From NCBI GenBank assembly GCA_963748625.1, contig CAVVJT010000004.1, positions 64,001 to 128,000 of the forward strand: a stretch of DNA of 64,000 nucleotides. Direction: 5' to 3'. The position numbers and the translations under genes are program-made. Below the pieces are notes generated by a model, which was given only the letters and a program-made list of their open reading frames with translations, was not told the origin of the DNA and made no database searches. Origin of the DNA: an uncultured Chloroflexia bacterium (lineage in GTDB: Bacteria; Chloroflexota; Limnocylindria; Limnocylindrales; CSP1-4). Each line of letters starts with the position of its first letter. Position 1 is the stretch's first letter. This document shows positions 15,816 through 39,642 of the stretch, one piece after another.

Positions 15816-16973
15816 TCAGTCCATCAGCTCCCGGCGCGACCAGCCATCGCCCCGGTTGTTGGAGTAGTAGATGCCGGGATCCCCGGCCATGCGCATGTAG
15901 GCGAGGTGGACGACGCCCGACGGACCCATCCCGGTGCTCGGATACATCGCCCATTCGCGCACGATCGTGCTCCGCGTCCACGTGCCGGACGCGTTGGTGG
16001 CCATGTAGATGCCCCGCCGGTCGTCGTCGTCGACGCGCGTGTAGACGATCCAGATCGCGCCTGTCCTCGAGCGCTCGATGTTGCCCCAGCGACCCTCCGG
16101 GGCCACCCGCCGCGTGACCCACGAGCCCGAGGAGTTCGTCACGTAGAAGGTGCCGAGCGGGAGATCGGGCTGGGCCTGGGAGTTGTACTCGCGTCCGAAG
16201 GCGACGTGGACCTTGCCCGCCGGGTCGACGACCAGCCCCATGGCGTGGTCCTCCGAGTCCGTCGAGATCAACTCCGTCACCCATGTGCCGGAGGCGTTGG
16301 TCTGGTACTGGATCCCCGCCTTGTCGCACACACCCGGCACCGTCTCGTGGCACTCCTCGAACAGGAGGTGGACCGAGCCGCCGGGCCCAAGGGCGATCTC
16401 GGCGTGGTTGCCCAGGCCGGTGTCGAGGCGCCGCCGTACCCACGTGCCGCTCTCGTTCGTCGCGTACCAGCTCTTCTCGTCCGTGTCCCACGCGATGTGG
16501 AGATTGCGATCGCCGTCCACGACGACCCGGATCTTGTAGGCATCGTCATGGACAACCGGCAGCTTCGTGCGGACCCATTCGCCGGACCGGTTCGTCAGGA
16601 GGTGGTGATTGACATCGTCCCCCACCTCTCGCTCGAACACGATGTAGACCTTCTGGTTGGCGTCGACTGCGATGGCGTGCGGGGTGTCCTTCGACGTCGT
16701 GAGGCGGCGGCGTGTCCACGTCTCGGTCTTGTTGGTGGCGTACACGATGCCGGGCGACCCGGCGTGCCGGTACACGACGTGGGTCTCGTTGAGCCTGTCG
16801 GTGACCAGGTAGGGCTGGATCGGATCGCACGCGCAGGTGTCGGCCGCAGCGGGCACAGGCACGGCGAGCGCCCCGAGGAGCAGCGCTGCCAGGAGCGCGA
16901 GCAGGCGGACTGGTGAGCGACCCCTGGTCACGGGCGACCTCCACACATGCTGGACGCGGTTGGAGCCTACCAT
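15816..16973 (-). CDS. Secreted repeat protein, probable beta-propeller (start uncertain)
   Basis: Signal-like LLALLAALLLGALAVPVPAAA; seven repeats of the type Y-x-T-N-x-S-G-x-W. Confidence 0.75.
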   Translation of the reverse strand: MVGSNRVQHVWRSPVTRGRSPVRLLALLAALLLGALAVPVPAAADTCACDPIQPYLVTDRLNETHVVYRHAGSPGIVYATNKTETWTRRRLTTSKDTPHAIAVDANQKVYIVFEREVGDDVNHHLLTNRSGEWVRTKLPVVHDDAYKIRVVVDGDRNLHIAWDTDEKSWYATNESGTWVRRRLDTGLGNHAEIALGPGGSVHLLFEECHETVPGVCDKAGIQYQTNASGTWVTELISTDSEDHAMGLVVDPAGKVHVAFGREYNSQAQPDLPLGTFYVTNSSGSWVTRRVAPEGRWGNIERSRTGAIWIVYTRVDDDDRRGIYMATNASGTWTRSTIVREWAMYPSTGMGPSGVVHLAYMRMAGDPGIYYSNNRGDGWSRRELMD

Positions 16974-16995
16974 GCGGGCTGCACCGGTCCGGGCG

Positions 16996-17235
16996 TCAGT
17001 CCGTGGCCTCGTCGATGGAGCGCATCCGGACCTGGTACTCGGCGGGGCTGATCTCGCCCGCGGCCATCCGGCGGCCCAGCTCCGCCCGCGCAACCTCCTC
17101 CGGCGAGGGCCGCGAACGCCGGATCGCCCAGACGATGACACCGACGATCAGCACCGTGGTGCCGACGGTCACGGCGAGCGAGCCGACCACGCTCAGGATG
17201 GTGATCCAGAAGACCCAGTCGAGATTGACGTCCAC
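16996..17235 (-). CDS. Small membrane protein with a SHOCT-like C-terminus
   Basis: Long hydrophobic stretch, then PEEVARAELGRRMAAGEISPAEY; GTG 17235 is preceded by TATCGT at 7 nt. Confidence 0.7.
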   Translation of the reverse strand: MDVNLDWVFWITILSVVGSLAVTVGTTVLIVGVIVWAIRRSRPSPEEVARAELGRRMAAGEISPAEYQVRMRSIDEATD

Positions 17236-17836: not shown

Positions 17837-19060
17837 TCAGGCCTCCAGGACCAGGACGTCCTTGGGGAAGCGCGTGAGCTGCCGCAGCGAGCGGGCAGCG
17901 GCGTCGAGATGGACGAGATCCTCGATCCGGACGCCCGTCTCGCCCTCGAGGTAGATGCCGGGCTCCACGCTGAACACCGTCGAACCGGGGAGCGGTGTCT
18001 GCGGCGCCCGGCGCGACAGGCTCGGCTCCTCGTGGGTCGCGAGGCCGATGCCATGCCCGAGGCCGTGCCCGTACGGTGCCCAGCGGCCGTCAGCCTCGAT
18101 CACGGCACGGGCGACGGCATCCACCGTCCGGCCGTCGGGGAGCGCGACGCCGCCCTCGGCGGCCGTCCGGATCAGCTCGATCGCCGCCGCCTGGGCCGCG
18201 GCGACCGTCTCATACACCGCGAGGTCCCGGGCTGACGGCTCGCCGATGAACAACGTCCGGGTCATGTCGCTGCGGTAGCCCTCGACCTGCGCCCCGAAGT
18301 CGAACAGCAGCACCGCACCCGCCAGGACCGGCCGGTCGCCGGGCGCACCGTGCGGCAGCGCCGCCTCGGGCCCGGCGAGACATGCGACATCGAACGCGAG
18401 GGCCTCGGCGCCCCCGGTCCGGATCAGCCACTCCAGGCGCAGCGCGAGGTCATGCTCCGTGACCCCTGGTCGGATCTCCGGCAGGAGCGCCGCGAGTGCC
18501 CGGTCCGCGACGGCGCAGGCCGCCTCGATCCGCTCGATCTCGTCGGGTGTCTTGACCGCGCGCATCGCCTCGATCCAGCCGTCCACCGGGACGAGCTCCA
18601 CGTCCGGCGCTGCGGCGGCGAGGCCCTGCCAGAGCAGGTGCGGGACCGCGGACGCCTCGACGGCAACACGCCGCGCACCCGCCCGGGCCACGAGGTCGGG
18701 CCAGGCCGCCTCCAGGTCATAGCCGATCTCGTCGATGCGGGCGTCGGGCGCCTCGCGACGTGCCTGGATCGTGTACCGCGAATCCGTGATCACGGTGACG
18801 TCGTCCGGGCCCACGACGAACTTGCCGGAGTGGCCCGCGACCTTGTCCTCGCCGGCACCGAGGGTGAACCCGGTCAGCCAGCGCATGTGCTCGGGCTTGA
18901 CGCCGAGGTAGGCGTCGACGCCCTCGGCGACCATCCGCTCGCGCAGGCGCCTGAGCCGGTCCGGCCGATGGGCCTGCTCGGCCTCGCGCCAGCCAGCACG
19001 GGTCGCCGCGTCGGGCGACACCGGGAAGTCGGCTGGAGTCGGAAGGACGGACCGCGTCAC
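17837..19060 (-). CDS. Xaa-Pro aminopeptidase (M24 family)
   Basis: TDSRY, RAVKTPDEI, LPHG, DFGA..GYRSDMTRT, HGLGHGIGL..HEEP, SVEPGIY, GVRIED. Confidence 0.93.
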   Translation of the reverse strand: MTRSVLPTPADFPVSPDAATRAGWREAEQAHRPDRLRRLRERMVAEGVDAYLGVKPEHMRWLTGFTLGAGEDKVAGHSGKFVVGPDDVTVITDSRYTIQARREAPDARIDEIGYDLEAAWPDLVARAGARRVAVEASAVPHLLWQGLAAAAPDVELVPVDGWIEAMRAVKTPDEIERIEAACAVADRALAALLPEIRPGVTEHDLALRLEWLIRTGGAEALAFDVACLAGPEAALPHGAPGDRPVLAGAVLLFDFGAQVEGYRSDMTRTLFIGEPSARDLAVYETVAAAQAAAIELIRTAAEGGVALPDGRTVDAVARAVIEADGRWAPYGHGLGHGIGLATHEEPSLSRRAPQTPLPGSTVFSVEPGIYLEGETGVRIEDLVHLDAAARSLRQLTRFPKDVLVLEA

Positions 19061-20448
19061 CGCGAGTTCTTGCCGTACTTCGCGACGTTCTTCTGGTGCT
19101 GGGCGAGGGTCTTGGCAAACGCGCTGGAGTCCGTGCCGTCACCCTTCGCGATGAAGAACAGGTAGCCGGCCTTCGTGTTCGGCGCGAGAGCCGCGTCGAT
19201 CGACGCGACGGATGGCGAGCAGATCGGGGACGGCGGCAGACCCTTGCTGGTGTACGTGTTGTAGCCGGCGATCCGCTTGGGCAGTGGCACGGGGAGCTGG
19301 TACCCCTCCGGCAACGAGTCCCAGAAGACGTACTTCGTCCACTCCTTGATCTTCATCTCGTCGAGCTTGAGCGTGTCGTGCGTGTAGAAGATCGTCGGGT
19401 CGGACTCGAGCAGGCCCGTCGCCCACATCTTGGGGTTGAGCCGGTTCTGGTAGACCCCGGCGATGAGGGCGCGCTCCTCGTCGAGAACGGCCTCGCGCTC
19501 GACGATCGAGGCGAGGATGAGGATCTCGTAGAAGGTGAGGCCGCGCTTCTCGGGCACAGCCATGCGCTCCGGGCCGACCTGGTCATAGAACGCATTGAGC
19601 ATCATGCGGATCAGGTCATCGGCGGTCGTGGGGCTGGCGCTGTCGATCCGCAAGGTGTACGTCGCCGGGTACAGGAACCCCTCGAGTGACGCCCCCTTGG
19701 GCCGGACGTCCTCGACGAGAATCCACGGGAAATCGCCCAGAATGGAATCCGGCGGATCCATGGCCAGCTTGTAGAACTCGGCGGGATCGACAGCGGAGTC
19801 GATCGTTGCGAGCTTGGCCGTCATCTGCTCGATCCTAAGTCCCTCGCGGAACGTGACGTCGAGCGTCTGGATGACGATCTTGTTCTCGACCAGGCCTGTG
19901 ACGACCTCGGCCGGCGTGAGGTTGGCGGCCAGGCGGTACCTCCCGGCGTCAAGCCGGCCCGCGAGGCCGGCCATCAGGGCCTCGAAGAGGAAGGCCCGCT
20001 CGCTCGTGATGATCCCCTGCTCGACGAGACGGGGCGCGAGGGCGGCCGGCGTGTCACCGGGCTCGACCGTGAACTCGATGGTGGCGGGGCTGATGCCCGC
20101 GGGCCGCGTCAGCTCGCCATCGAGCGCCTCCCGGTAGAGGTCTGCGACGAAGCCGATCCGCAGCGCCCCAGGGTTGCCCTCCGCCCACGGGACGACGAGT
20201 GCGCGCGTCAGTGGCCGTGCGACGGTCGTCAGGACCACGAGCACGGCGACCGCGAGGATCGCGAGGAACAGGATGAAGCGCAGGATGCCGCCCCGCCCGC
20301 GCTGGTCGCCGTAGCGCTCGTAGCGACGCTGGTCGCCCGGTCCACGTCCGTAGCGACCGGTGCGCTTGTAGCCATTGGGCCGCCGCTGGTCCGCGTCATC
20401 CGGGACGGCCATCGGCTCGCGCGCGCTCCGTCCGTTCCTGATGCTCAT
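19057..20448 (-). CDS. mltG: Endolytic transglycosylase MltG (YceG)
   Basis: N-terminal TM, AGRY, TFREGL, LEGFLYPATY, LASIVEREA, LESDPT, YNTY..GLPPSPICSP, YLFF. Confidence 0.93.
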   Translation of the reverse strand: MSIRNGRSAREPMAVPDDADQRRPNGYKRTGRYGRGPGDQRRYERYGDQRGRGGILRFILFLAILAVAVLVVLTTVARPLTRALVVPWAEGNPGALRIGFVADLYREALDGELTRPAGISPATIEFTVEPGDTPAALAPRLVEQGIITSERAFLFEALMAGLAGRLDAGRYRLAANLTPAEVVTGLVENKIVIQTLDVTFREGLRIEQMTAKLATIDSAVDPAEFYKLAMDPPDSILGDFPWILVEDVRPKGASLEGFLYPATYTLRIDSASPTTADDLIRMMLNAFYDQVGPERMAVPEKRGLTFYEILILASIVEREAVLDEERALIAGVYQNRLNPKMWATGLLESDPTIFYTHDTLKLDEMKIKEWTKYVFWDSLPEGYQLPVPLPKRIAGYNTYTSKGLPPSPICSPSVASIDAALAPNTKAGYLFFIAKGDGTDSSAFAKTLAQHQKNVAKYGKNSR

Positions 20449-20924
20449 CGGGACTCCTGCGTGTTGGCGGACAGTCCGCCACGGCGGGCATCCAGCTCGT
20501 CCTGGAGGATGACGCTCGCGGCCTCGCGATCGATTCGCGCCCGGAACGCGTTTCGCTGGGTCCGTGATGGGGCACCGCCCGATCGCCCGCGCGGCATGCG
20601 GCCCAGCCGCTGCTCGGCCTCGAAGGAGCTGAGACGCTCATCGCGCAGCGTCACGGGAAGCGCCAGGCGCTCGCCGATGGCACTCGCCCACTGGCGTGCG
20701 GCTGCTGCCATCTCGCCCTCATTGCCCCTGGCCTCGATGGGCAGGCCCACCACGAGCTCGGCGATGCCCTGCTCACCGCAGATGCGGCCCAGGACCGCCG
20801 CGTCGGCCTCGAGCGTGTCGCCGCGGTTCACCGTCTGCAACGGCCGAGCGATCCCGACGCCCGCGTCGGCCACCGCGATCCCGATCCGGCGCGAGCCCAG
20901 GTCCACGCCCAGGATCCGGCTCAT
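20445..20924 (-). CDS. ruvX: YqgF/RuvX family nuclease (pre-16S rRNA processing)
   Basis: ILGVDLGSRRIGIAVAD, VVGLP, DERLSS, IDREAASVILQ. Confidence 0.92.
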   Translation of the reverse strand: MSRILGVDLGSRRIGIAVADAGVGIARPLQTVNRGDTLEADAAVLGRICGEQGIAELVVGLPIEARGNEGEMAAAARQWASAIGERLALPVTLRDERLSSFEAEQRLGRMPRGRSGGAPSRTQRNAFRARIDREAASVILQDELDARRGGLSANTQESR

Positions 20925-21017
20925 GCGCGCGTCACAGCACACCGCCGACGGGCATCGACGGGTGGCTCGCGACCGGACGCGGCATGGCGCGACCGGGGAC
21001 TGCATTCGACTGGGGCA

Positions 21018-22829
21018 TCAGCCCGATGGTAGCGGCTCCTCGGCAGGCCCGCCGTTGGCGGGGTCCGACGCGTCAACCGGGTCGTTCACGATGACCGTCA
21101 CCCGCTGCTCGAGCGTGGGCACGGTCGTGACGAACCCGGGCCAGAGCTCCACGGAAGCCTCGCCATACCCGGCGAGCGCTGCCTCGGCCTCCTCCTGGGT
21201 CATGCCGAGCACCATGGCCTCGATGGCCGCGGCGTCCACGGGCACCACCTGCTTGGCCGAGACCGTCGCCTGGAACGTCACGGTGCCGTCCTCGTCGACG
21301 GTCCCATCGCCCACCGTGATCTCGGTCGAGCCCTCCACCAGGGTGGCGCCGTCGGCCACGAGCGCGTCGAGCTGCTGCGCAGCAAGCGCCTCGATGGGCG
21401 TCGTGTCTACCGCCAGCACCGTGCCGGTGGCGGTCATCACCAGCGTGAACGACTCCACCTCCTGGCCGACGAGCAATGCCGGATCCTCCGTCGGGGTCGC
21501 CTCGCCGAGCACGGCGGTGTCCGGGTAGGCCGTGTAGCCCGGCGGCACGCGATCCGCGTTCTCGACCTCGGTCTCGAACGTGGCCTCCAGGTCCTGCGCC
21601 AGGGTCGCGAGCGCGCCTTCGACGTCCTTCTTGGAGATGCGCGTGTAGCTGGTCTCGCTGCCGCCCGTGGTCTCGACCTGGTTGGTGACCCGCAGCACGG
21701 TGCGGTTGTACCGCGCCGGCACGATCCGGATCGTCCCGGCGGCAACGTTCCCTGTCTCACCGGGCTTCACCGCGGTCACGGCCACCTGGCTGGACTGGCA
21801 CTTGAGCTCGGGAGTGGTGCCGCCCCCGGAGATGATCGCGACGGGCAGGAACACGGACTCGTCGAGCGAGAAGGCGACACCGTCGGCGGTGCGGACCTGG
21901 GTCGCCCTGGGGATCGTGTAGGCCGCCGTGGGATCGCAGTTCGTCCAGCGCACGGCCCCGGTTGCGGGGGTCTTCTCGACGCGCTTGCCGGTGGCCGGGA
22001 AGTCCCCGGACGCCTCCACTGGGATCTCGATGACCTCGGCCGGGATCGTGAGCGCCTCAGCGTCGACGCTGGGTGCGTCGGGATCAGCGGTCACCGTGAG
22101 CGAGACCGGGCCCACAGGCTCGATCTGCGGCGTGACGGTGATGGTCGCGGACGGCAGGAACAGGTAGGCGGCGACGCCGGCGATCCCCAGCGCAACGACG
22201 AGGACCAGGATGCCGGCGATGAGGCCCGCCGGCACCCGGCGGCGCTTGCGCACGACAGGTGGGGCCGCGGGGCGGGGTGCAACGGGGGCTTCACGACTGC
22301 GCTGGACGACGGCATCAAGCCGTGCGGCCTCGTCGGGGGTCTGTGGCCGGGCCGCCGAGCCTGCTGCGACGCCGGTGGCGAAGCCCGCGACAGCGCCCGC
22401 CGGCTGCGCGCCGGCGACACCCTGGCCTCGCGGCACCGTGAGATCGTCCGAGTGGCCTGCACCTGCGCCTGATGCGGCTCCCGCGACCGCCGCCGACCCG
22501 GCGATTGCCGCCGCTCCGCCGATCGCCGTTGCTCCGTCCTCGCCGCCCGCCGGCATGGCGAGCGCTGCCTCGTACTCCCCCACCGAGCCGAACACCGGGA
22601 TCCCCGCTGACGCCGCGAGCGCTCGTGCGGACGCGTCGGGAGCGACGATGTCGAGGCGCCGGCCCTCACGCATCGCCTCTCGGGCGAGCAGCCGGAAGTT
22701 GATGCGCGATGTGGCCACGCGGGAACCGAACGGGACCACCAGCGCCACCCGCGTGTCCGGGGCATGGCGGATGCGCATCGCGGCCGAGGTGATCTCGTCC
22801 TCCGGGTCGAGGTAGACGATCGTGGGCAC
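21018..22829 (-). CDS. Bitopic membrane protein with an extracytoplasmic baseplate J/gp47-like domain
   Basis: N-terminal alpha/beta domain (YLDPEDEITS...LVVP..SRINFRLL), Ala/Gly linker, KRRR plus TM helix, LPSATITVTP, ATG..ATGAVRWTN..IPRAT..ADGVAF..VTAVKPGETGNVAAGTI..VTNQ..TTGG. Confidence 0.75.
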   Translation of the reverse strand: MPTIVYLDPEDEITSAAMRIRHAPDTRVALVVPFGSRVATSRINFRLLAREAMREGRRLDIVAPDASARALAASAGIPVFGSVGEYEAALAMPAGGEDGATAIGGAAAIAGSAAVAGAASGAGAGHSDDLTVPRGQGVAGAQPAGAVAGFATGVAAGSAARPQTPDEAARLDAVVQRSREAPVAPRPAAPPVVRKRRRVPAGLIAGILVLVVALGIAGVAAYLFLPSATITVTPQIEPVGPVSLTVTADPDAPSVDAEALTIPAEVIEIPVEASGDFPATGKRVEKTPATGAVRWTNCDPTAAYTIPRATQVRTADGVAFSLDESVFLPVAIISGGGTTPELKCQSSQVAVTAVKPGETGNVAAGTIRIVPARYNRTVLRVTNQVETTGGSETSYTRISKKDVEGALATLAQDLEATFETEVENADRVPPGYTAYPDTAVLGEATPTEDPALLVGQEVESFTLVMTATGTVLAVDTTPIEALAAQQLDALVADGATLVEGSTEITVGDGTVDEDGTVTFQATVSAKQVVPVDAAAIEAMVLGMTQEEAEAALAGYGEASVELWPGFVTTVPTLEQRVTVIVNDPVDASDPANGGPAEEPLPSG

Positions 22830-22832
22830 GGA

Positions 22833-24095
22833 CTAGACCTTCATCGCGCGCAGCACGCGGCGCAGCGCGGTGTCGAGGGGATCCTCGGTCGTCTGGAGCT
22901 CGATCGCCTGCCAGGCGAGGCCCAACGGCGTGACGTCCTGCTGGTCCACGAGCAGGTGGGTCGCGTCGGATATGGCATCGACCTGGTCCGGGGCCATGAT
23001 CGTCACCTCGGGTGGGCGGGCGAAGGGAAGGCTCTTCCAGAACCGCTCTCCGGCGAGCGCCTCCTTGACCTCGGGGAGCCTGGAGCCACCACCGCAGAGG
23101 TAGATGCGGGACGGGAGCATCTCGCCCGCCGCCAGCTCCTCCATGACAAGCTCGACCCCGGCAGCCCACACCGCGGTGTCGTCGCCGACGATCTCCTGGA
23201 CGTCCTCGCGCTCACGCATCTGCAGGCCCCGCGCGTAGTCGACCTTGAGGGCTTCCGCCCGCGGGAACGGCAGGTCCATGCGGTCGGCGATGGACTTGGT
23301 GAATGCCCGGCCGCCAAGGGCGAACATGCGGGTGCCCTCGATGCCACCCTGGCGCACGAGCGCGACGTCCGTGGTCCCACCCCCGACGTCAATGAACAGG
23401 GCGCCCGACTGGCGCACGTGGTCGGCTCCCAGCACCCGGGCCACGGCATATGGCTCGGCCACGATCTCGAGCAGGTCGAGGTCGAGCTGGCTCGCGACCG
23501 ACTGCAGCGCACCAAGATGGACGAGCGGGGCGAAGGCGTTGAAGATGCCGATCCTGACGTGGCGGCCCTGGAACCCGACCGGATTCGTGAGGCCGTAGCC
23601 GTCGATGGACGCGCCCACCACGGCGCTGTGGACCAGCCGGACATCAACGTGTGGCAGGCCCGTCTCCCAGGTGATCGAGCGCTCGGCCTCGATCAGTGCC
23701 TCGCGCTGGACCGAGTCGATGAGCTTGACCAGCTCGCCATCGGTGATGGGCACCTCGGGCTTCTTGCGCTCCTGGGTGAGCGTCGTGGTGAAGCCCTTGA
23801 CGAGCTCGCCGGCGATGCCGATGACCACCTGGGTGGGCCGGAAGCCGGCCATCTCCTCGGCCTCCTGGAGCGCCACGGCGCAGTTGTCCACCACCGCCGC
23901 GATGTCCGCGACGGTGCCCGACTGCATGTGGGACAGGCCCTGCCGCTGGCGGCCGACGCCGCGCACCGTGCCATGCCCCGTCTCGTCGATCTCGAAGACG
24001 AGGGCCTTCGCGAACTCGGTCCCGATGTCCAGCGCCGTGCACGCGGCGGGGACGGGGCCCTCGTCGCGGTTCAGGATGCGGCGCAGGAACGACAT
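22833..24095 (-). CDS. FtsA-like actin-fold ATPase
   Basis: ALDIGTEFAKA (phosphate 1), AEPYA, FIDVGGGTTDVA (phosphate 2), GGRAFT, AEALK, LCGGGSRL (adenosine). No ftsZ or ftsQ nearby. Confidence 0.85.
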   Translation of the reverse strand: MSFLRRILNRDEGPVPAACTALDIGTEFAKALVFEIDETGHGTVRGVGRQRQGLSHMQSGTVADIAAVVDNCAVALQEAEEMAGFRPTQVVIGIAGELVKGFTTTLTQERKKPEVPITDGELVKLIDSVQREALIEAERSITWETGLPHVDVRLVHSAVVGASIDGYGLTNPVGFQGRHVRIGIFNAFAPLVHLGALQSVASQLDLDLLEIVAEPYAVARVLGADHVRQSGALFIDVGGGTTDVALVRQGGIEGTRMFALGGRAFTKSIADRMDLPFPRAEALKVDYARGLQMREREDVQEIVGDDTAVWAAGVELVMEELAAGEMLPSRIYLCGGGSRLPEVKEALAGERFWKSLPFARPPEVTIMAPDQVDAISDATHLLVDQQDVTPLGLAWQAIELQTTEDPLDTALRRVLRAMKV

Positions 24096-24130: not shown

Positions 24131-26920
24131 TCACGCCCGCGCGACCAGGTCCGCCACCGCGGCACGCACGGCCGTGATCGCATCCCCGAGCCCCTCGCGG
24201 CGGGTGCCCTTCCCCTGGGCCATCTGCGGGCGTCCGCCGCCACGGCCATCGATGCCGGCCACGGCACCCTGGACGAGCGGACCCGCCGCGATGCCACGCG
24301 CCACGAGGTCGTCGCTCACGGTGACGAAGATCTGCGGCTCGTCGGCATCGAGGCCGACCGCGATCACGCCTGACGGCAGCGACCCGCGCATGTCCTTGGC
24401 GAAGCCCTTGAGCTCGTCGATGCCCTCGAGGTCGAGGATGGCGCCGGCGAACAGCACACCCGGTGCGAGCTCCTCGGCCTTGGCCGCGACCTCGCCCGGC
24501 TTGGGTCGGCCGCCGGCCGCGGCGCCCGCCTTGAGCCTGCGCTTCGTCTCGCGGAGCTCGTCCTGGAGGGACTGGATCCGGTCCTCCAGGGCCTCGGGGC
24601 CTCGTGCGGCGACGGCGACTGTCGCCCGATCAAGTAGGGCGAAGCGCTCCTCCATGAGACGGTCCGCACCGGCGCCAGTCACGGCCTCGACCCGGCGCAT
24701 GCCCGAGCCGATGCTCTTCTCGCTGGTGATCACGAAGTTGCCGATCTGCCCGCTGGCGCGGCAGTGGGTGCCGCCGCACAGCTCATGGCTGAAGCCTTCG
24801 ACGCGGATGGTCCGCACCCGCTCACCGTACTTCTCGTCGAAGAAGGCGTCGGCGCCGGCGGCCTGGGCCTCGGCCATGGTCATCCACTCGATGCTGACCG
24901 GCCGGTCCTCGCGGACCGCCTCGCGGACCTGCCGCTCGATCGCGAGCTTCTCGTCGTCGGTGAGCCCGCGGTCGAACGGGAAGTCGAAGCGCAGGTAGTC
25001 CGGGTGGACCAGCGAGCCCGCCTGGCGCGCCCGCTCCCCCACCACGTTGCGTAGGGCCCGATGCAGCAGGTGCGTGCCTGTGTGGTTGCGCATGATGTGG
25101 GCCCGGCGCTCGGCGTCCACGACGCCGGCCACGGTCTCGCCGACCTGCACGCGGCCGCGCAGGACGCCGCGATGGACGGTGAGGCCTGCGGTCTGGGTGC
25201 CGGCGACGCGCTGGACATCCTCCACCTCGAGCAGGACGGTGCCGTCGTCCGAGGTGATGACGCCAGTGTCGGCGACCTGGCCGCCCGACTCCGCGTAGAA
25301 GGGTGTCTCGGCGAGAACGATCTCCACGCGTCCGCCAGACCCGGCCGCCGAGACCGCCTCGAGCGAGTCGTACTCGGTGCCGTCGCGCAGGATCGCGACA
25401 ACCTGGCCATGGGCGGTGGTGGTCTCGTAGCCGAGGAACCGGGTGGCCGCCGTGCGGGCAAGGATCTCCTGGTAGCGCGAGGCGGCGAGGTTGACGTCGG
25501 TCAGGCCGGCCTTCGTGTTTGCCCGGCTGCGCTCCCGCTGCTCCGCGAGCGCGTCCTGGAAGCCCGCGAGATCGGTCCGGACGCCGTACTCGGCCGCCAG
25601 CTCGACGGTGAGGTCGATCGGGAAGCCGTAGGTGTCGTGCAGGCGGAACGCGATGTCGCCTTTGAGGATCGGCGCGTCGGCCGGCAGGTGCTCCGCGGAC
25701 TGGCCCACCACGCGGGGCTCACTGGTGAGCGCCTCCAGGGCGTCCTCCAGGAGGCCGACGCCGGCCTCGAGGGTCCGGTTGAACTGCCTGTCCTCGCGCT
25801 CGATCACGGCGAGGATCTCGTCGCGGCGCTCGAGCAGGTTGGGGTAGGCGACGCCCATGGTGTCGATCACGACCTTGGCCATCTCGCCCAGGAACGGCTC
25901 GTGCCAGCCGAGCAGCCGCCCGTGGCGGATGGCCCGGCGCATGATCCGGCGCATGACGTAGCCGCGACCCTCGTTGGACGGCAGGACGCCGTCGGCGGCG
26001 AGGAACGTGACCGCGCGGCTGTGGTCCGCGATGACCTGGTAGCTGAAGCGCTGCGCTTCGAACGTGTCAGGATCGCTGCCGAGCAGCTCGCGCATGCGGG
26101 CGTGGAGCGGCGCGAACAGATCGGTGTCGTAGTTGGTCGTCACGCCCTGGACGACGCTGGCGATCCGCTCGAGGCCCATGCCGGTGTCCACGCCGGGGGC
26201 CGGCAGCGGGGTCAGGCTCCGGTCGGGATGGAGCTCGAACTCCATGAAGACCAGGTTCCAGACCTCCAGCCACCGCGGGCAGTGCTCGCTGTGGTCAGGA
26301 ACGCATTCCGGGCCCTCGGAGAGGTGGACGCCGCGGTCGTAGTGGAGCTCCGAGCAGGGGCCGCACGGACCCACGTCGCCCATGCGCCACCAGTTCGCCT
26401 CGTCACCGGCCGGGAAGTCACCCCAGCGCACGAGCCGCTCCGGGGGCAGCCCGATCTCGTTCTTCCAGACGTCGTGCGCGAAGTCGTCGGTCGAGTAGAC
26501 GGTTGCCGCGAGACGGTCGGCCGGGATCTGGAGGTCCTGCGTCAGGAACTCCCAGGCCCAGTGGATGGCCTCGCGCTTGAAGTAGTCGCCGAAGCTCCAG
26601 TTGCCGAGCATCTCGAAGAGCGTGTGGTGACGCGGTGTGCGCCCGACCTCCTCGAAGTCGTTGTGCTTGCCGGCGACGCGCAGGCAGCGCTGGTAGTCCA
26701 CCGCGCGGACGTAGTCCCGCTTCTCCACGCCGGTCAGGGCGTCCTTGAACTGGACCATGCCGGAGTTCGTGAAGAGCAGGGTCTGGTCACCCGCCGGCAC
26801 GAGGCTGGCGCTGGGCACGACAGTGTGGCCGCGCGCCGCGAAGAAGTCGACGAAGCGCTGGCGGACCTCCGCGGCGGGGAGGAAGGGAATGGTCGGGTCG
26901 GACGGACTCTGGGTGGACAT
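24131..26920 (-). CDS. alaS: Alanine--tRNA ligase
   Basis: LLFTNSGMVQFK, HHTLFEMLGNWSFGDYFK, GPCGPCSE, DTGMGLER, HTGTH and ELCGGTH editing motifs, GGGRPQMAQG. Confidence 0.97.
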   Translation of the reverse strand: MSTQSPSDPTIPFLPAAEVRQRFVDFFAARGHTVVPSASLVPAGDQTLLFTNSGMVQFKDALTGVEKRDYVRAVDYQRCLRVAGKHNDFEEVGRTPRHHTLFEMLGNWSFGDYFKREAIHWAWEFLTQDLQIPADRLAATVYSTDDFAHDVWKNEIGLPPERLVRWGDFPAGDEANWWRMGDVGPCGPCSELHYDRGVHLSEGPECVPDHSEHCPRWLEVWNLVFMEFELHPDRSLTPLPAPGVDTGMGLERIASVVQGVTTNYDTDLFAPLHARMRELLGSDPDTFEAQRFSYQVIADHSRAVTFLAADGVLPSNEGRGYVMRRIMRRAIRHGRLLGWHEPFLGEMAKVVIDTMGVAYPNLLERRDEILAVIEREDRQFNRTLEAGVGLLEDALEALTSEPRVVGQSAEHLPADAPILKGDIAFRLHDTYGFPIDLTVELAAEYGVRTDLAGFQDALAEQRERSRANTKAGLTDVNLAASRYQEILARTAATRFLGYETTTAHGQVVAILRDGTEYDSLEAVSAAGSGGRVEIVLAETPFYAESGGQVADTGVITSDDGTVLLEVEDVQRVAGTQTAGLTVHRGVLRGRVQVGETVAGVVDAERRAHIMRNHTGTHLLHRALRNVVGERARQAGSLVHPDYLRFDFPFDRGLTDDEKLAIERQVREAVREDRPVSIEWMTMAEAQAAGADAFFDEKYGERVRTIRVEGFSHELCGGTHCRASGQIGNFVITSEKSIGSGMRRVEAVTGAGADRLMEERFALLDRATVAVAARGPEALEDRIQSLQDELRETKRRLKAGAAAGGRPKPGEVAAKAEELAPGVLFAGAILDLEGIDELKGFAKDMRGSLPSGVIAVGLDADEPQIFVTVSDDLVARGIAAGPLVQGAVAGIDGRGGGRPQMAQGKGTRREGLGDAITAVRAAVADLVARA

Positions 26921-26927
26921 CGGGCCA

Positions 26928-26933
26928 ATGGTA
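26928..26933 (-). promoter_or_regulatory. Putative -10 box TACCAT, 7 nt before the alaS ATG (leaderless)
   Basis: TACCAT-TGGCCCG-ATG on the minus strand. Confidence 0.55.
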
Positions 26934-27070
26934 GCGAACGGGGTCCCACTCGACCGGACTGGGTCCGGCGGGTGCCGCCAGCCCCGGCGGTCCCGGCGGC
27001 CTCGGCGGCCTCGGCCCACGACCGTCGCACCCTGGAGGCGGGTCTCATCCGCAGGAGGATGGTCTGGCGC

Positions 27071-27232
27071 ATTCATCCGTGCAGGAATGGAATCCGAGGA
27101 GTGCGTGCAGGGCTCAGGGCCAGAGGTCGGGGTTCGGCGTCTGACCCCCGTACGGCCGGGGCGATTCTGATCCGCACCGGGATTGTTGGCAGATTCGATC
27201 CGCGCAGGGATGGAATCAGGGGCGGGCGAGCA
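27071..27232. repeat. Degenerate ~40-bp direct repeat with internal palindromy (copies at 27071 and 27193, partial at 27164)
   Basis: attc-atccgtgcaggaatggaatccgaggagtgcgtgca versus attcgatccgcgcagggatggaatcaggggcgggcgagca. Confidence 0.55.
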
Positions 27233-27499: not shown

Positions 27500-27780
27500 T
27501 GTCCCGGATCTCCAGACTGCGATCCGAGGGTGGCCAGGATCGCGACGATCCCGATGCCCACCCAGGCCATCACCGAGGCCGGGATGAGCGGGTAGTCGCC
27601 GATGGCCAGGAACGTCAGCCCCAGCCTGGCGCCGATCGCGGCGCCAGCCCATGCCCCCAGCGCCGCCGCGATGTACATCAGCGGCAGGCGCGACCCACCG
27701 TCCCCGCGGATCAGCACGTAGACCGAGGTGTAGATGAGCCCCAGGAGCAGCGAGAGCGGGAGGGCCGGCCCAATGGTCAT
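27496..27780 (-). CDS. Small integral membrane protein (about 3 TM)
   Basis: [26 protein letters not shown]...; ATGA overlap with the mnmA stop. Confidence 0.75.
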
Positions 27781-28997
27781 GCGGACGCTCCCGCGAGCGG
27801 GGTGTCGGCCGCGACCAGGGTGTCGGCCGCGAACCGGCGATCGCCCGGGGGCACGGTCCCGGGACCCGCCAGGGAGGGTTCGATCCGGCCTCCGCCGAGG
27901 CACACGTCCCCGTCGTATAGCACGCACGCCTGGCCCGGCGCGATGGCCCACACGGGTCGCGTCGTCGTCACGCTCCAGCGGCCGCCGCGGGCCTGCTCTG
28001 CCGCGGTTGCCGGCCGCACCTCGGCCTCCACGAGCTCCGCCCGGTGGCGGATCCTGACCTGGGCGGTGAACGGCAGCCAGGCTCCGTCAGCGGCGCGGCC
28101 CGCGGGCGGCGTGTCCGCCAGGAACGAGACCCCTTCGAGCGGGATCACGGTGGTCTCCAGGTCCTCGCGTCGGCCGAGCACGATCGCATTGGTCGCCGGG
28201 TCGATCCGCGACACGTAGCGCGGCTCGCCGGTCGCGACGCCCAGGCCCTTGCGCTGGCCGACCGTGAAGCCTGCTGTGCCGTCATGTGTGCCCACGCGAG
28301 TCCCGTCACTGTCCACCACAGGCCCCGGAACAGGCTGCCAGCCACCCCGGTCGCGCAGCTCCGCACGGTAGTCGCCGCCAGGCACGAAGCAGATCTCCTG
28401 GCTCTCGGGCTTCTCCGCGGTCACGAGGCCCAGACCTCGTGCGATCTCGCGCACCTGCGGCTTGCGCAGGTCGCCCAGCGGGAAGCGGCTGTGCCACAAC
28501 TGGTCCTGGCGCAGGCCATACAGGAAGTAGGTCTGGTCCTTCGCCTCGTCGGCGGCACGGGCGAGGACGGCTCGGGGACCGTCCCCGGTCTGGACCTCGA
28601 GCCGCCGCGCGTAGTGACCGGTCGCCACGGCGTCACACTCGTACAGTTGGCGGGCCTGGCCCAGCAGTGCCCCGAACTTCACGACGGTGTTGCAGTCGAT
28701 GCAGGGACTGGGTGTCCGTCCGTCAAGGTAGGCGGCAAGGAACGGCTCGATGACGCCCGCCCCGAACTCGCGTTCCAGGTTCATCACGTAGAAGGGGATC
28801 CCAAGGCGGGCGGCGACACGACGCGCGTCGTCGGCGGCATCGGCCGAGCAGCAGGACTTGCGGAACTCCGAGTAGCTGTCGGCGGCCTCATGGAGGCGCA
28901 TCCACACGCCCACCACCTCGTGGCCCTGCTCGTGCAGCAGTGCCGCAGCGACGGAGCTGTCCACGCCGCCGGACATCGCGACGAGGATCCGGCTCAT
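27777..28997 (-). CDS. mnmA: tRNA 2-thiouridylase MnmA
   Basis: [55 protein letters not shown]. Confidence 0.96.
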
Positions 28998-30178
28998 CCG
29001 GCGACAGCCTCGCGACCGGGGCCGGCCGTCCGGGCCGGAGCCACGGCGGCAAGCCGCCGGATCACCTGCGGCACGACCCGGCACGCCTCGTCGATCTCGG
29101 CCTCTGTGGTCGTCCGGCCGAGCGACAGCCGCACGGCACCGCGTGCCTCCTCCGCCGGGTAGCCCATCGCGCTGAGCACGTGGCTGACCTCGTCGGAGCC
29201 GCTCGTGCATGCGGATCCGGTGGAGGCGCCGACGCCCTCGAGATCGAGTGCCACCGTCACCGAGCCGCCATCAACACGCGGGACAAGGATCGAGAGGATG
29301 TGCGGCAGACGCTCCATCGGGTGCCCGGTGAGCTCCACGCCCTCGATCGCCAGAATGGCGGCGGCCAGGCGGTCGCGCAGCGCCAGGACGTGTGCCCGAG
29401 TGGCCTCCCGCTCGGCCGCGACCAGCTCGAAGGCGCGGGCCATGCCGACGGCACCCGCGACGTTCTCGGTTCCCGCGCGCCGGTGCCGCTCCTGGGAGCC
29501 GCCGTGCTGCTGCGCGAGGATGTGGGTCCCGCGACGGATCCAGAGGGCCCCGGTCCCCTTCGGCCCTTCCGCCTTGTGGGCACCGAGGGCGAGCAGGTCG
29601 ACCCCGAGTGCGTGCACGTCCAGATCCACCCACGGCGCACCCTGCACCGCGTCCACGTGGAACAGGATCCCGCGCCGGGCGCGAACGACGGTCGCGATGT
29701 CGGCGATGGGCTGGATGGTGCCCACCTCGTTGTTGGCGAGCATCACCGAGACCAGGATCGTGCGGTCCGTGAGCGCCTGCTCGATGTCGGCCGGGTCCAC
29801 GCGGCCGTACCGGTCCACGGGAACCTCGACGATCTCGAACCCGAACTTCTCGAGGTGCGAGAGGGTGTGTCCAACGCAGTGGTGCTCGACTGCGGAAGTC
29901 ACGATCCGGGCGCCGCGCGCACGTCCCGCCCAGGCAGCGCCCTTGAGCGCGAGGTTGCTCGCCTCGGTGCCGCCGCTGGTGAAGACCATCTCCCGCGCCT
30001 CTGCCCCGATCGAGCGGGCAAGACGGTCGTGCGCGTCGTCGAGCGCCTCGCGGGCCACCCGTCCGAAGGCGTGCGACGAGGACGGATTGCCGAAGGTGCC
30101 CCCGAGGTATGGGAGCATCGCCTCGAGCACTTCCGGCCTGAGGGGCGTCGTCGCGGCGTGGTCGAGGTAGATCGCCAT
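28994..30178 (-). CDS. iscS: Cysteine desulfurase (IscS/NifS type)
   Basis: [48 protein letters not shown]. Confidence 0.92.
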
Positions 30179-35824: not shown

Positions 35825-36879
35825 CGCCCGTCCTCCTCGCCAGCCGGCCGGGCATCGCCCGGCGTGGGTTCCTCGCCAGCCGGGCCCGGCCGCTCCAGGT
35901 CCGGCCACACGCCCACGTGGTCCTCCTCGAGGCGGAGCCGCACCCGGCTGCGAAGCTCGAGCGACTCGACGTGGCTGCGGGGCAGCTGCAGGCGACCGGC
36001 ACGATCCAGGACGGCGTACTCCTCGCTGATGACCCGGTCGTGGCCCTCCTCCGTCTGCTCGGTACGCCGCAGCGTCTCGGTGCTGGTGCGACCGTCCCGG
36101 ATGGCGACCGTCCGGCCGACCTGCTCGGAGACGAATGCGTCGTGCGTGACGATCACGATCGTCGTGCCCATCTCGGCGTTGACGCGCCGCAGCAGGCCGA
36201 AGACATCGGCGGAGGTGGCGCTGTCAAGCTCTCCTGTCGGCTCATCGGCGAGGATCACCGCCGGGTCGTTGGCCAGGGCGATCGCGATGGCCACGCGCTG
36301 CTGCTCACCGCCCGAGAGCCGGTCGGGCCGGTGGCTGGCGCGGTCACCGAGCCCAACGAGGTCGAGGAGCTCTCGTGCCCGTGCAGTTCGTGCCTTGCGG
36401 CCATCGAGCAGCATCGGCAGCTCCACGTTCTCCGCCGCCGACAGGTAGGGCAGCAGGTTCCGCCCGGTCTGCTGCCAGACGAACCCGACGGTGCGACGGC
36501 GGAACCGCGTCCGCTCCGAGCCGCCCATCCGCCCCAGGTCGTAGCCGGCCACCACGGCGCGCCCTGCCGACGGGACGTCCATGCCTCCCAGGATCGAGAG
36601 CAACGTCGACTTCCCGCTCCCGGACGCGCCCACGATCGCGATCATCTCGCCTCCCTCGACGAGCAGGTCGAGTCCCTGGAGCGCGACGACCTCGAGCTCG
36701 GCAAGCTTGAAGATGCGGACCAGACCGTCGCAGACGATGACGGCGCCCTCGCCGTACCGCACCCGGGGCGGCTGGGCCAGCGAGGCGCCGGCCAGGGGAT
36801 CGCGGCGCCCCGTGGCGGACCCGGCGGTCCCGGCGGACGGCAGCTGGGCGGAGTCGGGCGCGGCAGGCAGGATCGGCAT
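35821..36879 (-). CDS. ABC transporter ATP-binding protein with C-terminal extension; in frame with the upstream permease in this sequence
   Basis: GASGSGKST, LSGGEQQRVAIA, ADEPTGELD, VTHD, tail EEYAVLDRAGRLQLP; own ATG at 36879. Confidence 0.85.
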   Translation of the reverse strand: MPILPAAPDSAQLPSAGTAGSATGRRDPLAGASLAQPPRVRYGEGAVIVCDGLVRIFKLAELEVVALQGLDLLVEGGEMIAIVGASGSGKSTLLSILGGMDVPSAGRAVVAGYDLGRMGGSERTRFRRRTVGFVWQQTGRNLLPYLSAAENVELPMLLDGRKARTARARELLDLVGLGDRASHRPDRLSGGEQQRVAIAIALANDPAVILADEPTGELDSATSADVFGLLRRVNAEMGTTIVIVTHDAFVSEQVGRTVAIRDGRTSTETLRRTEQTEEGHDRVISEEYAVLDRAGRLQLPRSHVESLELRSRVRLRLEEDHVGVWPDLERPGPAGEEPTPGDARPAGEEDGR

Positions 36880-39642
36880 CACTCGAAATCTTCCTCGAAG
36901 CACGGACGTTGGCGCAACCCGGCGCACGAGCAGGGATCCGACGGAGATCCCGAGGAGCACGACGCCGGCAAGAACCCCGAGCACGGCCAGCGCGGCGCGT
37001 GGGTCGAGCACGACGGGAACTTCGACCCGGACCCCGACGAGGGCGTCAAGGCCCAGCGCCGGCCTGACGACGGCGAACAGGCCCAACCCGAGCATGACCC
37101 CGGCCACGAAGGCGAGCAGGGTCGTCGGTCCGTGCTCAGCCGCTGTCAGGAGGAACACCTGGCGCGACGTCAGGCCGAGCGTCCGCAGGTGGGCCACCTC
37201 GACCACGCGTGCCAGCGCAGCCAGCGCCAGTGCCGCGGCCACCCCGAGCGCCGCATAGAGGGCGGTGACCGCGGCCGCAGCGATGATCACTCCGCGGATC
37301 GCCTCGGTCACGGGCGCGCTCCGGCGGGCCTCGGCATCCTCTGCCTGGCTGGTGACGGCGACCACCGGCGACACCGCGGCCACGGCCGCCCGGATCGCCG
37401 ACGCGGCCTCCGCGGTTGCCGGAGCGCGCAGGACGACCCCGGTGGGCACGAGGCGCGCCGCCGGGGCCTGGGCTGCCACCCACTCGCGGGGAACCACCAC
37501 GAAGGGTCGGCCTTCCGGCAGGCCGGGCCAGGAATCCGCCACGGCCGCCGCGAGATACGTGAGCGTGTATCCCTGCACGCTCATCTCGAACGTCTCCCCC
37601 GCCTGCACGCCGCGCGGGTTGGCGACGAGGTCCTGCGACACCACCGCTGGGATGGGACCCGCCCCAGGCGTCGTGGCGCCTGCCGGCCACGAAGGGGCGA
37701 TGGGCGTGCCGTCCAGCACCTGCTCAAGGGCCGCCGCCCCCACGGCCGCATACATCGTCTGCAGCCCGCTCGGCGCGATCGGGATCAGCGCACGGAACTC
37801 GGAGGCAGCGGCTTCCACGCCCGGCAGCCGCTCCGGGTCGAGCCCGTTCGGCAGGGCTCCGTCGGGGACACCGAGGCGGTAGGCGCCGCCGGTCTTGTGC
37901 CAGGCCGCGAGCTCGGCGCCCCGGTCAAGGCTGTCGAGCGCCACCAGCGCGAACGTCCCCACCGTGGACGTGGCGAGGAGCACAAGCAGGATCGCCGTCC
38001 CAATGCCCCCCTCGGTGCCGCGACGTGCGGCAAGCAGCGGCACGAGGCCACGGCGGCGCCTGGCCAGCGAGGCCGCAGCGCGCATCACGGCTGGGACGAC
38101 ACGCAGGACGATGAGGCCCGCCGCCACGCCCACCAGCGCCGGGACGGCGGCAAGGAGCGGATCCACACCCGTCCCTGGCGCCGACAAGGCAGCCGAGCCC
38201 AGGCCACGCTCGCGCAGCAGGAACGCGCCACCCACCGCAAGGCCCACGACGAGCGCCTCGCCCACCAGGCGGCGCGGCCCGCTCCGCCGTCCGGACCGCT
38301 CGCCTGCCCGGCGCTCCGGACCCAAGGCCCGGGCGACCGGGACGACGGTCCCCACGATCACCAGCACGGCGGCAACCGCCACGGCGCCCGCTGCAAGGAT
38401 CGTCGCCTGTGTCTGCCCGGCCGGCACGACGACGGCCGCCGCGACGGCGGCGAGCGCTGCCGCCGGTACGGCCAGCAGGACCCCCTCCAAGGCCGATGGC
38501 ACGAGCACCTGCGCCACCGCGCCGCCGCGGCTGCGCACCAGCGCCATCGTGGATCGGCGGCGACGCCCGGCGAGGCTGGCAATCAGGACCATTGTGGCGA
38601 GGGCGACCAGGGCCGGACCGACAACGACGACGGCGATGACCGACCCTGCCGCGGTCCATGCGGCCTGGTGCGCCTCGAGGAGCGCGAGCATCCCCGTCCG
38701 CATGGCCGTCTCCCGGCCGGCTCCCACGTTGGCCGACGGGTACTGCACCGCGAGGGCCCGGAATGCCCGCAGCAGGTCGGGCGCCGAGCGCGCCGTCACC
38801 TGGCCCGCATCCACCCCATAGCGCCACTGGAGGCGCAACGGACGATGGTTGGCGTCGTTGATGTCCGCCAGCTCGCCGTAGGCCGCCGCATCGAGGATCG
38901 CCACCGCGTCGAGCAGCTGGAGCTCGGACGAGAGCGCCCGGATCACCGGCCGGATCGGCAGAGGGTCGTCGCGCCAGTACTCCGAGCCCGGATCGGGGAC
39001 CTCGTAGATGCCGGTGATCTCCGCAAACGCGTGGACGGCCAGCTGCGAACGTCCGAACAGCGGGTCGCCGGGATCACCGCTCAGCGGCACCGCCTGGCCG
39101 AGCTCGAGGTCGAACCGGTCCGCCGTCGCCCGCGAGATGGCCACCTGGTAGACCGGGACGTCATCCTCCTTCTCCGGCCCGACCCCGTCGCGCCGGACAA
39201 CCTCCGATGTGGGTGGCCTGCCTTCCACGTAGGTGATGTGCGCATCGATCCCCTCCTGCACCCGCATGCGGAGGAACGCGGGGTCGGTGGTCCTCGTGTC
39301 CACCCGGTAGCGGGCGCTGTCCACGACGATGTACCCGTCGTCCACGATCCGCTCGATGCGCCGCGGGAACGTCGCCCGCAGGTCATCGCCCGCGGCGCGC
39401 ACCTCCGCGAGCGGGTCGTCCTGCGGTCCGGGTCGGGTGACCTGGTGCTCGATGAGCACGATGGCCCGCTCCGACGCCGTGGCAGCCGCAACCTGGGCCT
39501 GGACCGCCTCGTCGCCGAGCGCGGCCAGGATCCGTGGGGCGAGCGCCGCAGCGAACGCCGTCACCAGCACGAGGACGAGGACTCCCACCGTCGGCGCGAG
39601 GTCGTCGCGGAGCCGGAGCAGGGCCATCAGGGTCCAGCGCAT
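36879..39642 (-). CDS. Large FtsX/MacB-like ABC permease; apparent fusion to the ATPase probably caused by a 1-bp insertion
   Basis: N-terminal TM, large extracytoplasmic loops, RRSTMALVRSRGG and EVAHLRTLGL FtsX-type motifs; ATG 39642 overlaps the previous TGA. Confidence 0.8.

Follow-up and report, generated by a model that had tools for sequence, protein, structure and literature searches.

An FtsA-like ATPase gene and a gene for a membrane protein with a baseplate wedge-like ectodomain share one operon slot in Chloroflexota

The gene pair and its operon

The DNA considered here, called the window throughout, is a stretch of 64,000 nucleotides (nt) on contig C4 of a 4.6-Mb assembly, and the names of close homologues place it in Chloroflexota, near 'Candidatus Limnocylindrales'. 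Two adjacent genes on its minus strand are the subject of this study. The first encodes an FtsA-like actin-fold ATPase of 420 amino acids (aa; P0001, 22833..24095), and the second a bitopic membrane protein of 603 aa with a GTG start and a predicted N-in/C-out orientation (P0002, 21018..22829), referred to below as the partner. An earlier note, made from the DNA letters alone, had described these two open reading frames (ORFs), the ATP motifs of the first and a 3-nt gap between them, and translation and the junction sequence (TAG, tcc, GTG) bear this out exactly. Across Chloroflexota, the partner is the wider element and the core of the system, and the ATPase is an accessory found only beside it. 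The two are discussed here as candidate components of an undescribed envelope-spanning module.

The pair is embedded in a run of genes, alaS-ATPase-partner-ruvX-mltG-M24 peptidase, all on the minus strand and spaced by 0-35 nt or overlapping. The upstream border of the slot is alaS (24131..27076; TIGR00344, 826.9 bits). Downstream, ruvX (20445..21005; PF03652, 110.6 bits) lies 12 nt past the partner stop codon, and its end overlaps by 4 nt with mltG (19057..20448), which encodes an endolytic transglycosylase of the YceG family (PF02618, 223.7 bits; TIGR00247, 160.4 bits) and is followed by the M24 peptidase gene (17837..19060). A Pfam scan of the 35 window ORFs detected no ftsZ, ftsQ, mreC/D, pilus or phage-tail gene, in agreement with the earlier note, which had remarked on the lack of such genes nearby.

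Architecture of the membrane partner

An AlphaFold2 model of the partner, computed with 63 aligned homologues, reached a mean predicted local distance difference test score (pLDDT) of 84.9 and reproduces the layout that had been proposed from the letters, namely an N-terminal alpha/beta domain, a disordered linker, a basic KRRR motif with one transmembrane (TM) helix and a beta-rich ectodomain. The cytoplasmic N-terminal domain (residues 1-92; 22554..22829, minus strand; pLDDT ~97) is joined to the membrane by an Ala/Gly/Pro-rich linker (residues 93-200; 22230..22553, minus strand; pLDDT <50 at 95-200) with 32 A, 17 G and 11 P per 110 residues, which ends in RKRRR. Immediately after this basic cluster comes the single TM helix (residues 201-223; 22161..22229, minus strand), supported by the model helix and by the Kyte-Doolittle profile, which places it at about 201-225 with a 19-residue maximum of 2.8 at residue 203. 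The remainder of the protein is a predicted extracytoplasmic ectodomain (residues 224-603; 21021..22160, minus strand) that resembles baseplate wedge (J/gp47) proteins in fold searches and is modeled with a pLDDT of ~98 over residues 227-585.

The N-terminal domain is the most conserved part of the partner (alignment A1). When modeled alone it gave a pLDDT of 97.2 and a predicted template modeling score (pTM) of 0.87, and its structural neighbors in VIA-align were mostly STAS domains, with Z scores of 6.9-8.1 and 83-91 of 92 residues aligned. These neighbors include the stressosome proteins RsbR and RsbS, anti-sigma-factor antagonists, SpoIIAA and the STAS domains of SLC26 proteins. Foldseek returned no match at E<=0.001, Pfam at E<=10 gave just Chap-C (E 0.042) and DUF1995 (E 0.18) and no STAS family, and the A3 profile searched against PDB sequences had a best E of 0.032. 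An Atlas search with the domain recovered solely short hypothetical proteins of Chloroflexota, with scores <=0.88. Because such Z values are common and sequence support is lacking, the domain is called STAS-like here and not a member of the family.

The ectodomain is related by sequence to baseplate proteins in one region, a barrel domain (residues 282-396; 21642..21986, minus strand). Here, Pfam Baseplate_J (PF04865) matches residues 284-392 with 27.5 bits against a cut-off of 21.1, covering model positions 18-111 of 255, and phrog_6, 'baseplate wedge subunit', matches residues 283-392 (E 5.3e-11). PF04865 also matches 54 of 63 members of the partner family (E<=0.05) and 38 of 52 further representatives (E<=1e-5), always at model positions ~16-116, and Pfam revealed no additional fused domains in these 52 proteins. 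The likeness extends further at the level of structure. Foldseek against PDB gave 28 matches at E<=0.001, with 8kea_d at the top (E 7.1e-9, 344 columns) and cyanophage A-1(L), phi812, phiCD508 and Mu gp47 proteins as leaders, over at most ~350 aligned columns. For the barrel (residues 282-394), VIA-align returned 8kea_b (Z 14.8, root mean square deviation 3.0, 100 residues), Mu gp47 (9ki1_H, Z 12.1) and the barrel of GlxA (4unm_A, Z 12.7), and all 19 chains with Z>=8 were GlxA or wedge proteins of baseplates or contractile injection systems (CIS). Among 67 BFVD matches at E<=0.001, the named proteins of the top 50 were baseplate J/wedge or baseplate-assembly proteins, bar three generically named phage proteins. 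Foldseek, VIA-align and BFVD are thus in accord with the baseplate J/gp47 likeness first noticed by eye. With regard to membership of Baseplate_J, the gathering score is passed and the wedge fold is present, and the tail or CIS gene cluster expected of such proteins (gp25, tube, sheath, spike) is missing from the window and from the conserved slot. Moreover, tblastn of the partner against 50,697 phage records gave no match. The sequence likeness to wedge proteins is local and distant.

A tail-like or contractile-injection locus does exist in the host genome, on contig C10 (C10:542354-552223 (~), within C10:541000-559000). It encodes a gp19-type tube protein, a CIS tube protein with LysM, a VgrG-like hub/spike, PAAR, gp25 and Tail_P2_I, together with a genuine Baseplate_J protein of 648 aa. 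The ectodomain profile gave no significant match to this Baseplate_J protein of the same genome (hhalign probability 0.33%).

The FtsA-like ATPase

The ATPase contains the motifs DIGTE, GIAGE, DVGGGTTD and CGGGS. In an alignment of 20 orthologues sharing 38-92% identity (A2), residues D23, G25, E27, D236, G238, G239, T241, T242, G335 and G336 are invariant. FtsA is the best match in Pfam (PF14450, 59.8 bits) and in NCBIfam (ftsA TIGR01174), where the score of 104.9 bits falls under the equivalog cut-off of 175.85; a sequence search of PDB likewise returned FtsA (7q6f, 53.9 bits). Other actin-family models scored lower: EutJ 49.6 bits, PilM 29.5 bits (TIGR01175, cut-off 133) and 20.0 bits (PF11104, cut-off 27), and MreB 28.8 bits (TIGR00904, cut-off 365.75) and 34.5 bits over just 77 residues (PF06723).

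Alignment with the FtsA of the host genome itself (24% identity over 354 aa) spans the 1C/SHS2 region, which also aligns to E. coli FtsA (IDGY.GLTNPVGFQG against VDGQEGVKDPLGM); the Pfam SHS2_FTSA model gave no match at E<=0.01. FtsA binds membranes through a C-terminal amphipathic helix, and a putative membrane-targeting sequence of this type is present at the end of the ATPase (residues 406-420, LDTALRRVLRAMKV; 22836..22880, minus strand). These residues have the top helical hydrophobic moment of the protein (0.87), and the C-terminal end is conserved among orthologues; the ATPase may bind the membrane through this helix.

In the home clade, the ATPase is more conserved than alanyl-tRNA synthetase (AlaRS). 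Over the close loci defined below, the ATPase had a median identity of 83.3% to its window counterpart, compared with 72.9% for AlaRS and 42.5% for the partner, and ATPase identity exceeded AlaRS identity in 65 of 67 loci. Identity as a defense system was also considered and rejected, since PADLOC gave no match at E<=0.001 for either protein (best E 0.0065 for the ATPase, none for the partner).

A paralog beside the canonical division machinery

The earlier note had called the ATPase an orphan and suggested looking for a separate ftsA-ftsZ locus and placing the protein in an actin-family tree. A full ftsW-murG-ddl-ftsQ-ftsA-ftsZ cluster is indeed located on another contig, C10, and its canonical FtsA scores 404.6 bits with TIGR01174 and 98.8 bits with SHS2_FTSA. 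Two MreB genes (465-475 bits) are found in the genome as well, one beside mreC and the other beside murA. Because a full ftsQ-ftsA-ftsZ cluster and two MreB genes are present elsewhere, the ATPase is regarded as an extra actin-family protein and not as the divisome FtsA. The partner is also unique in the host, as a whole-genome search with profiles of its N-terminal domain and ectodomain matched P0002 only.

The tree, computed with IQ-TREE from 34 rows, comprised 20 FtsA-like proteins, 11 canonical FtsA (from 10 Chloroflexota genomes/host/E. coli) and 3 MreB; E. coli HofM and EutJ were omitted because they had formed very long branches in a first tree. Canonical FtsA proteins, including that of E. 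coli, form one clade (support 97/96), and the FtsA-like proteins form a distinct clade outside it (support 100/99). The ATPase therefore differs from FtsA in the equivalog score, in tree grouping and in location outside the dcw cluster.

Distribution, linkage and the three states of the slot

At E<=0.001, the partner family counts 5,249 representative clusters, and 23 of 24 genomes from the genus of the host carry the partner. Linkage was examined in the close loci, which are the best 80 of 437 confirmed places in species genomes, nearly all of them metagenome-assembled genomes of Chloroflexota. In all 80, an FtsA-like gene is located directly upstream of the partner gene, and the order mnmA-alaS-FtsA-like-partner-ruvX-mltG-peptidase is kept wherever the contig extends. 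ATPase stop and partner start are separated by a median of 9 nt, and by no more than 30 nt in 56 of 65 loci. The same arrangement was seen in the 10 distant slot loci that have an FtsA-like gene (10/10), and the partner N-terminal domain is encoded directly next to each of 20 additional ATPase genes from other families. Altogether, a partner gene directly follows every FtsA-like gene examined (110/110), and none of these genes adjoins ftsZ.

At the scale of the phylum, an even draw of 401 Chloroflexota genomes was surveyed. The partner profile was found in at least 267 of them, a minimum owing to stricter initial screening, and the ATPase profile in 121 at E<=1e-60; the tallies include unpublished genomes (G078, G220, G296, G366 and G201 for the partner; G201, G296 and G366 for the ATPase). 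The pair is therefore widespread in Chloroflexota, as the earlier note had suggested. The 30 families tallied by name divide equally, 10 each, into those with both genes, those with the partner alone and those lacking both, and in no family does the ATPase occur without the partner. Outside the phylum, an Atlas search returned clusters of Saccharimonadota at scores of 0.91-0.92, which are only a lead for the occurrence in Patescibacteria that the note had also suggested.

The neighborhood is also kept over long distances. In each of 19 distant slot loci, alaS and ruvX-mltG flank a partner with both N-terminal domain and ectodomain. Eight of these loci have a well-conserved ATPase, 2 a degenerate one and 9 none. 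Consequently, the co-conservation proposed earlier for the pair stands in one direction, with the ATPase always accompanied by the partner (110/110), and fails in the other, with the partner often found alone (9/19). In five genomes without a linked ATPase, no orthologue was found elsewhere by profile; the best score was 55-73 bits, from canonical FtsA, against 589-723 bits in carriers. Against the orthologue profile, the degenerate genes (L107:4286-5554 (+) and L118:7508-8599 (-)) reach 109 and 65 bits; both encode proteins with disrupted phosphate-binding motifs and without the C-terminal helix, and they resemble transitional stages between an intact gene and its loss.

Ten genomes without the partner, including close kin of the host, were also considered. 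Here, alaS is directly beside ruvX in 7 of 8 retrieved loci, with no match to either profile, and MltG is retained in 8 genomes and MreB in 7. The idea that partner loss tracks the loss of MltG or MreB was rejected on this basis, except for two complete genomes of ~1.5 Mb that lack partner, MltG and MreB. From the survey of slot loci, one operon slot with three states can be recognized: empty, occupied by the partner alone, or occupied by ATPase and partner.

Covariation between the ATPase and the domains of the partner

Profile scores of ATPase, N-terminal domain and ectodomain were compared over a set of 39 slot loci. The N-domain score rises with the FtsA-like score (Spearman +0.74), and partners accompanied by an ATPase have a median N-domain score of ~53 bits (n=28), against ~32 bits for those without (n=9). 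The ectodomain shows the reverse of the N-domain, with lower scores where an ATPase is present than where it is absent and negative correlations with the ATPase and N-domain scores (-0.57 and -0.64). This covariation is a lead for direct contact between N-terminal domain and ATPase, and not proof of it.

Two simpler patterns were tried. Presence of the N-terminal domain does not track the ATPase, since partners without an ATPase retain a homologous domain and align over their full length, N-terminal domain included (probability 99.75%). Linker length does not track it cleanly either, as several ATPase-bearing loci have linkers of 56-62 aa.

Association of both proteins with Hanks kinases

Two proteins of 791 and 792 aa (P0276 and P0277) combine an N-terminal Hanks Ser/Thr kinase with an entire FtsA-like orthologue whose ATP motifs are intact, and one of them is annotated as a protein kinase from a member of the Ktedonobacteraceae. 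The ectodomain is associated with kinases as well. In genome G144, the usual slot carries the pair (L103), and three tandem paralogues of the ectodomain are encoded away from it (L104:159-7308 (+)); two of these have the arrangement Hanks kinase-TM-ectodomain (840 and 836 aa), and one has just a disordered N-terminus. Partner residues 226-581 align with the extracellular part of a G144 kinase paralogue in hhalign (probability 99.3, E 6.8e-21). Among 26 relatives of this kinase paralogue, 23 contain a kinase domain, and several are named kinases of cultured Thermogemmatispora. By analogy with sensor and anchoring domains, the ectodomain can be viewed as a portable extracytoplasmic module that is coupled to either a kinase or a STAS-like domain.

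Other long relatives are of less interest. Apparent single-protein fusions of ATPase and partner (P0275 and P0282) were rejected as such, because out-of-frame stretches precede the partner's own Met, and they are interpreted as assembly frameshift artefacts. The long relatives P0272-P0275 and P0278-P0287 resemble read-through of alaS, ATPase, partner or ruvX, and the alaS- and ruvX-fused ones are assumed to be artefacts too.

Other features of the window

The window has a G+C content of ~72%. Scans for transfer RNAs and Rfam families gave no match over its length, and a promoter/terminator scan gave no signal exceeding shuffles. Upstream of the pair, the longest ORF of alaS starts ~69 codons ahead of the family match (Pfam from residue 70), and the mnmA ORF (27777-29210 (-)) starts ~73 codons ahead of its own; the true starts of both genes are probably further downstream. 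A 441-aa ORF between efp and the M24 peptidase gene (15816-17141 (-)) has high third-position G+C and no Pfam match (E<=0.01). Elsewhere, three successive ORFs of 225, 205 and 308 aa without a Pfam match at E<=1e-6 (36581-38821 (+)) adjoin the gene for a 1,092-aa protein with FtsX-like permease domains (39642-42920 (-)), and this region shows raised G+C and strong AT skew.

Relation to known systems

Pairs of an actin-like protein and a bitopic partner are well known in bacteria: FtsA-FtsN, MreB-RodZ and PilM-PilN organize division, elongation and pili, respectively. With FtsA and its partners FtsN and FtsQ/DivIB, the pair described here shares the actin fold, an alignable 1C region, a C-terminal amphipathic helix and the adjacent gene for a bitopic protein. 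The ATPase differs from FtsA in scoring under the equivalog cut-off, in grouping outside the FtsA clade, in its location outside the dcw cluster and in coexisting with a true FtsA, and the partner differs from FtsN and FtsQ in having a folded STAS-like domain and a baseplate-type ectodomain. The layout of PilM-PilN (GspL in the fused form) is similar too: the gene for an FtsA-like actin-fold protein is followed directly by that for a single-pass membrane protein, to whose cytoplasmic end the actin-fold protein docks. However, PilM models score 20-30 bits on the ATPase, far under their cut-offs, and pilus or secretion genes are not nearby; PilN has a short peptide at its N-terminus and a small domain in the periplasm, compared with the STAS-like domain and 360-aa ectodomain of the partner. 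In MreB-RodZ, which operates in wall synthesis, a cytoskeletal actin homologue binds a bitopic protein through the folded domain that the latter exposes to the cytoplasm. The RodZ cytoplasmic domain is a helix-turn-helix, MreB models score only ~29-35 bits on the ATPase, and the two true MreB are encoded elsewhere in the genome.

For the ectodomain, PASTA-type Hanks kinases (PknB, StkP, PrkC), which sense the cell wall, offer a parallel, as Thermogemmatispora-type genomes carry the ectodomain outside the membrane on Hanks kinases. Unlike PASTA kinases, the ectodomain is baseplate-J-like, with a weak PASTA match in 1 of 63 family members, and in the window protein a STAS-like domain takes the place of the kinase. 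The parallel with wedge proteins (Mu gp47, T4 gp6 class) is structural, with Z scores of 12-15 for the barrel and alignments of up to ~350 columns. Unlike these proteins, the partner is matched by sequence only at PF04865 positions ~17-115 of 255, is membrane-anchored and stands alone in a housekeeping operon.

FcmB-FcmC of Nostoc punctiforme is a recently described case in which an additional actin-like protein works alongside MreB and depends on a partner at the membrane (PMC12645912). According to the same source, FcmB derives from plasmid-partition (ParM-type) actins and not from FtsA (PMC12645912). It is also cyanobacterial, and its partner is unrelated. A literature search found no paper on the ATPase-partner pair, and the main text of a Southlakia transposon-sequencing (Tn-seq) study mentions neither FtsA, nor baseplate, nor MltG (PMC10633639).

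Proposed function and alternatives

The chances seem about even that the pair is an undescribed envelope-spanning module, a scaffold or a sensor, in which the wall zone is coupled to an FtsA-like assembly. At its core, the bitopic protein would hold a rigid ectodomain of ~360 aa, descended from a J/gp47-type wedge protein of phage baseplates, in the zone of the wall, and the long flexible linker would join it to the small cytoplasmic STAS-like domain. Where an ATPase is encoded, the STAS-like domain or the linker may recruit this dedicated FtsA-family protein, which would bind ATP and sit at the membrane via its C-terminal amphipathic helix. An FtsA-type oligomer or scaffold on the cytoplasmic side could thereby be coupled to the state or position of an element beyond the membrane. 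The module would most likely serve to organize or regulate wall growth or remodeling together with the co-transcribed MltG, and a role in wall remodeling is considered probable because of the constant place in the ruvX-mltG operon.

Several observations weigh against this interpretation. Operon membership is the sole link to MltG, and a connection to surface-layer assembly, which the earlier note had also raised, is likewise a matter of operon context. Both genes are absent from genomes that keep MltG and MreB, and thus the module is not required for wall growth as such. Partners with their N-terminal domain occur without an ATPase in 9 of 19 distant loci and 10 of 30 families, and since the partner persists in this state, the N-terminal domain must have a role independent of the ATPase. 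The STAS likeness of this domain is middling, with Z scores of 7-8 that are common values and without sequence support. P-values for the covariation are overstated because the genomes are related and the profiles derive from Limnocylindria-type sequences. Finally, a tree in which FtsA-like and Chloroflexota FtsA proteins are constrained together to the exclusion of E. coli FtsA is not rejected by an approximately unbiased (AU) test (p-AU 0.157), so that the paralog may have arisen inside Chloroflexota.

A bolder form of the proposal is offered tentatively, as a possibility on the doubtful side. The module may be an outside-in envelope system, the first example of its kind, in which a wedge-derived ectodomain binds or senses the wall and the STAS-like domain nucleates or positions membrane-bound polymers of the FtsA family, making it a fourth cytoskeletal actin system, next to FtsA and the two MreB, that steers wall remodeling in Chloroflexota. 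If so, the ectodomain would do for the module what PASTA repeats do for PknB-type kinases, and Ktedonobacteria would have wired the same ectodomain and actin directly to Hanks kinases.

Other explanations start from one or the other half of the pair. The ATPase could belong to a second division apparatus, tethering FtsZ with an FtsN/FtsQ-like partner for specialized septation. FtsA is the nearest family by all sequence measures (TIGR01174, 104.9 bits; 7q6f, 53.9 bits), and the 1C region recognized by alignment and the C-terminal amphipathic helix are of FtsA type. However, a complete ftsQ-ftsA-ftsZ cluster is already present in the genome, the paralog groups outside the FtsA clade and is beside ftsZ in 0 of 110 loci, and many lineages with a partner have either no copy of it or a degenerate one, all of which makes a second divisome unlikely.

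Starting from the partner, a signaling module resembling a partner switch can be imagined, with a wall-sensing ectodomain, a STAS-like output domain and a non-polymerizing ATPase or adaptor that acts like EutJ, or like Hsp70 on its clients. STAS domains are the top fold matches of the N-terminal domain, Hanks kinases use the ectodomain and one is fused to the ATPase, and the partner appears to work without the ATPase in many lineages. These points are offset by the limited STAS likeness (just Z 7-8, no STAS sequence match), by the Pfam scan of the window, in which no anti-sigma, phosphatase or kinase gene is beside the pair, and by the alignable 1C region and putative membrane helix, features of a kind that marks membrane-bound FtsA/PilM scaffolds. 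Signaling of this kind is accordingly held to be improbable.

A platform of PilM/PilN type for a pilus, a secretion system or another appendage would account for the layout of an actin-fold protein with a bitopic partner and for the weak PilM matches (PF11104, 20.0 bits; TIGR01175, 29.5 bits); it is very unlikely given cut-offs of 27 and 133, a partner that does not resemble PilN, and a window and conserved slot from which genes for pilin, secretin, ATPase and PilO are absent. A phage-tail or contractile-injection remnant, or a defense pair, with no envelope role can be given hardly any credence, since the wedge fold and phrog_6 match of the ectodomain stand against the absence of other tail genes near the pair, a true tail locus elsewhere in the genome whose Baseplate_J protein is not recognized by the ectodomain profile (hhalign probability 0.33%), empty searches of 50,697 phage records by tblastn and of PADLOC (E<=0.001), and a housekeeping-operon position that is fixed across the phylum.

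The pair joins a further FtsA-family protein to a membrane protein, one that reuses a phage baseplate fold outside the cell, and throughout a large environmental phylum it keeps to a single operon slot. The proposal can be tested through three results: the partner is the core of the system, its N-terminal domain covaries with the ATPase, and its ectodomain serves kinases of cultured Thermogemmatispora. Together, these results point to a possible ligand of the ectodomain and to a possible assembly of the ATPase.

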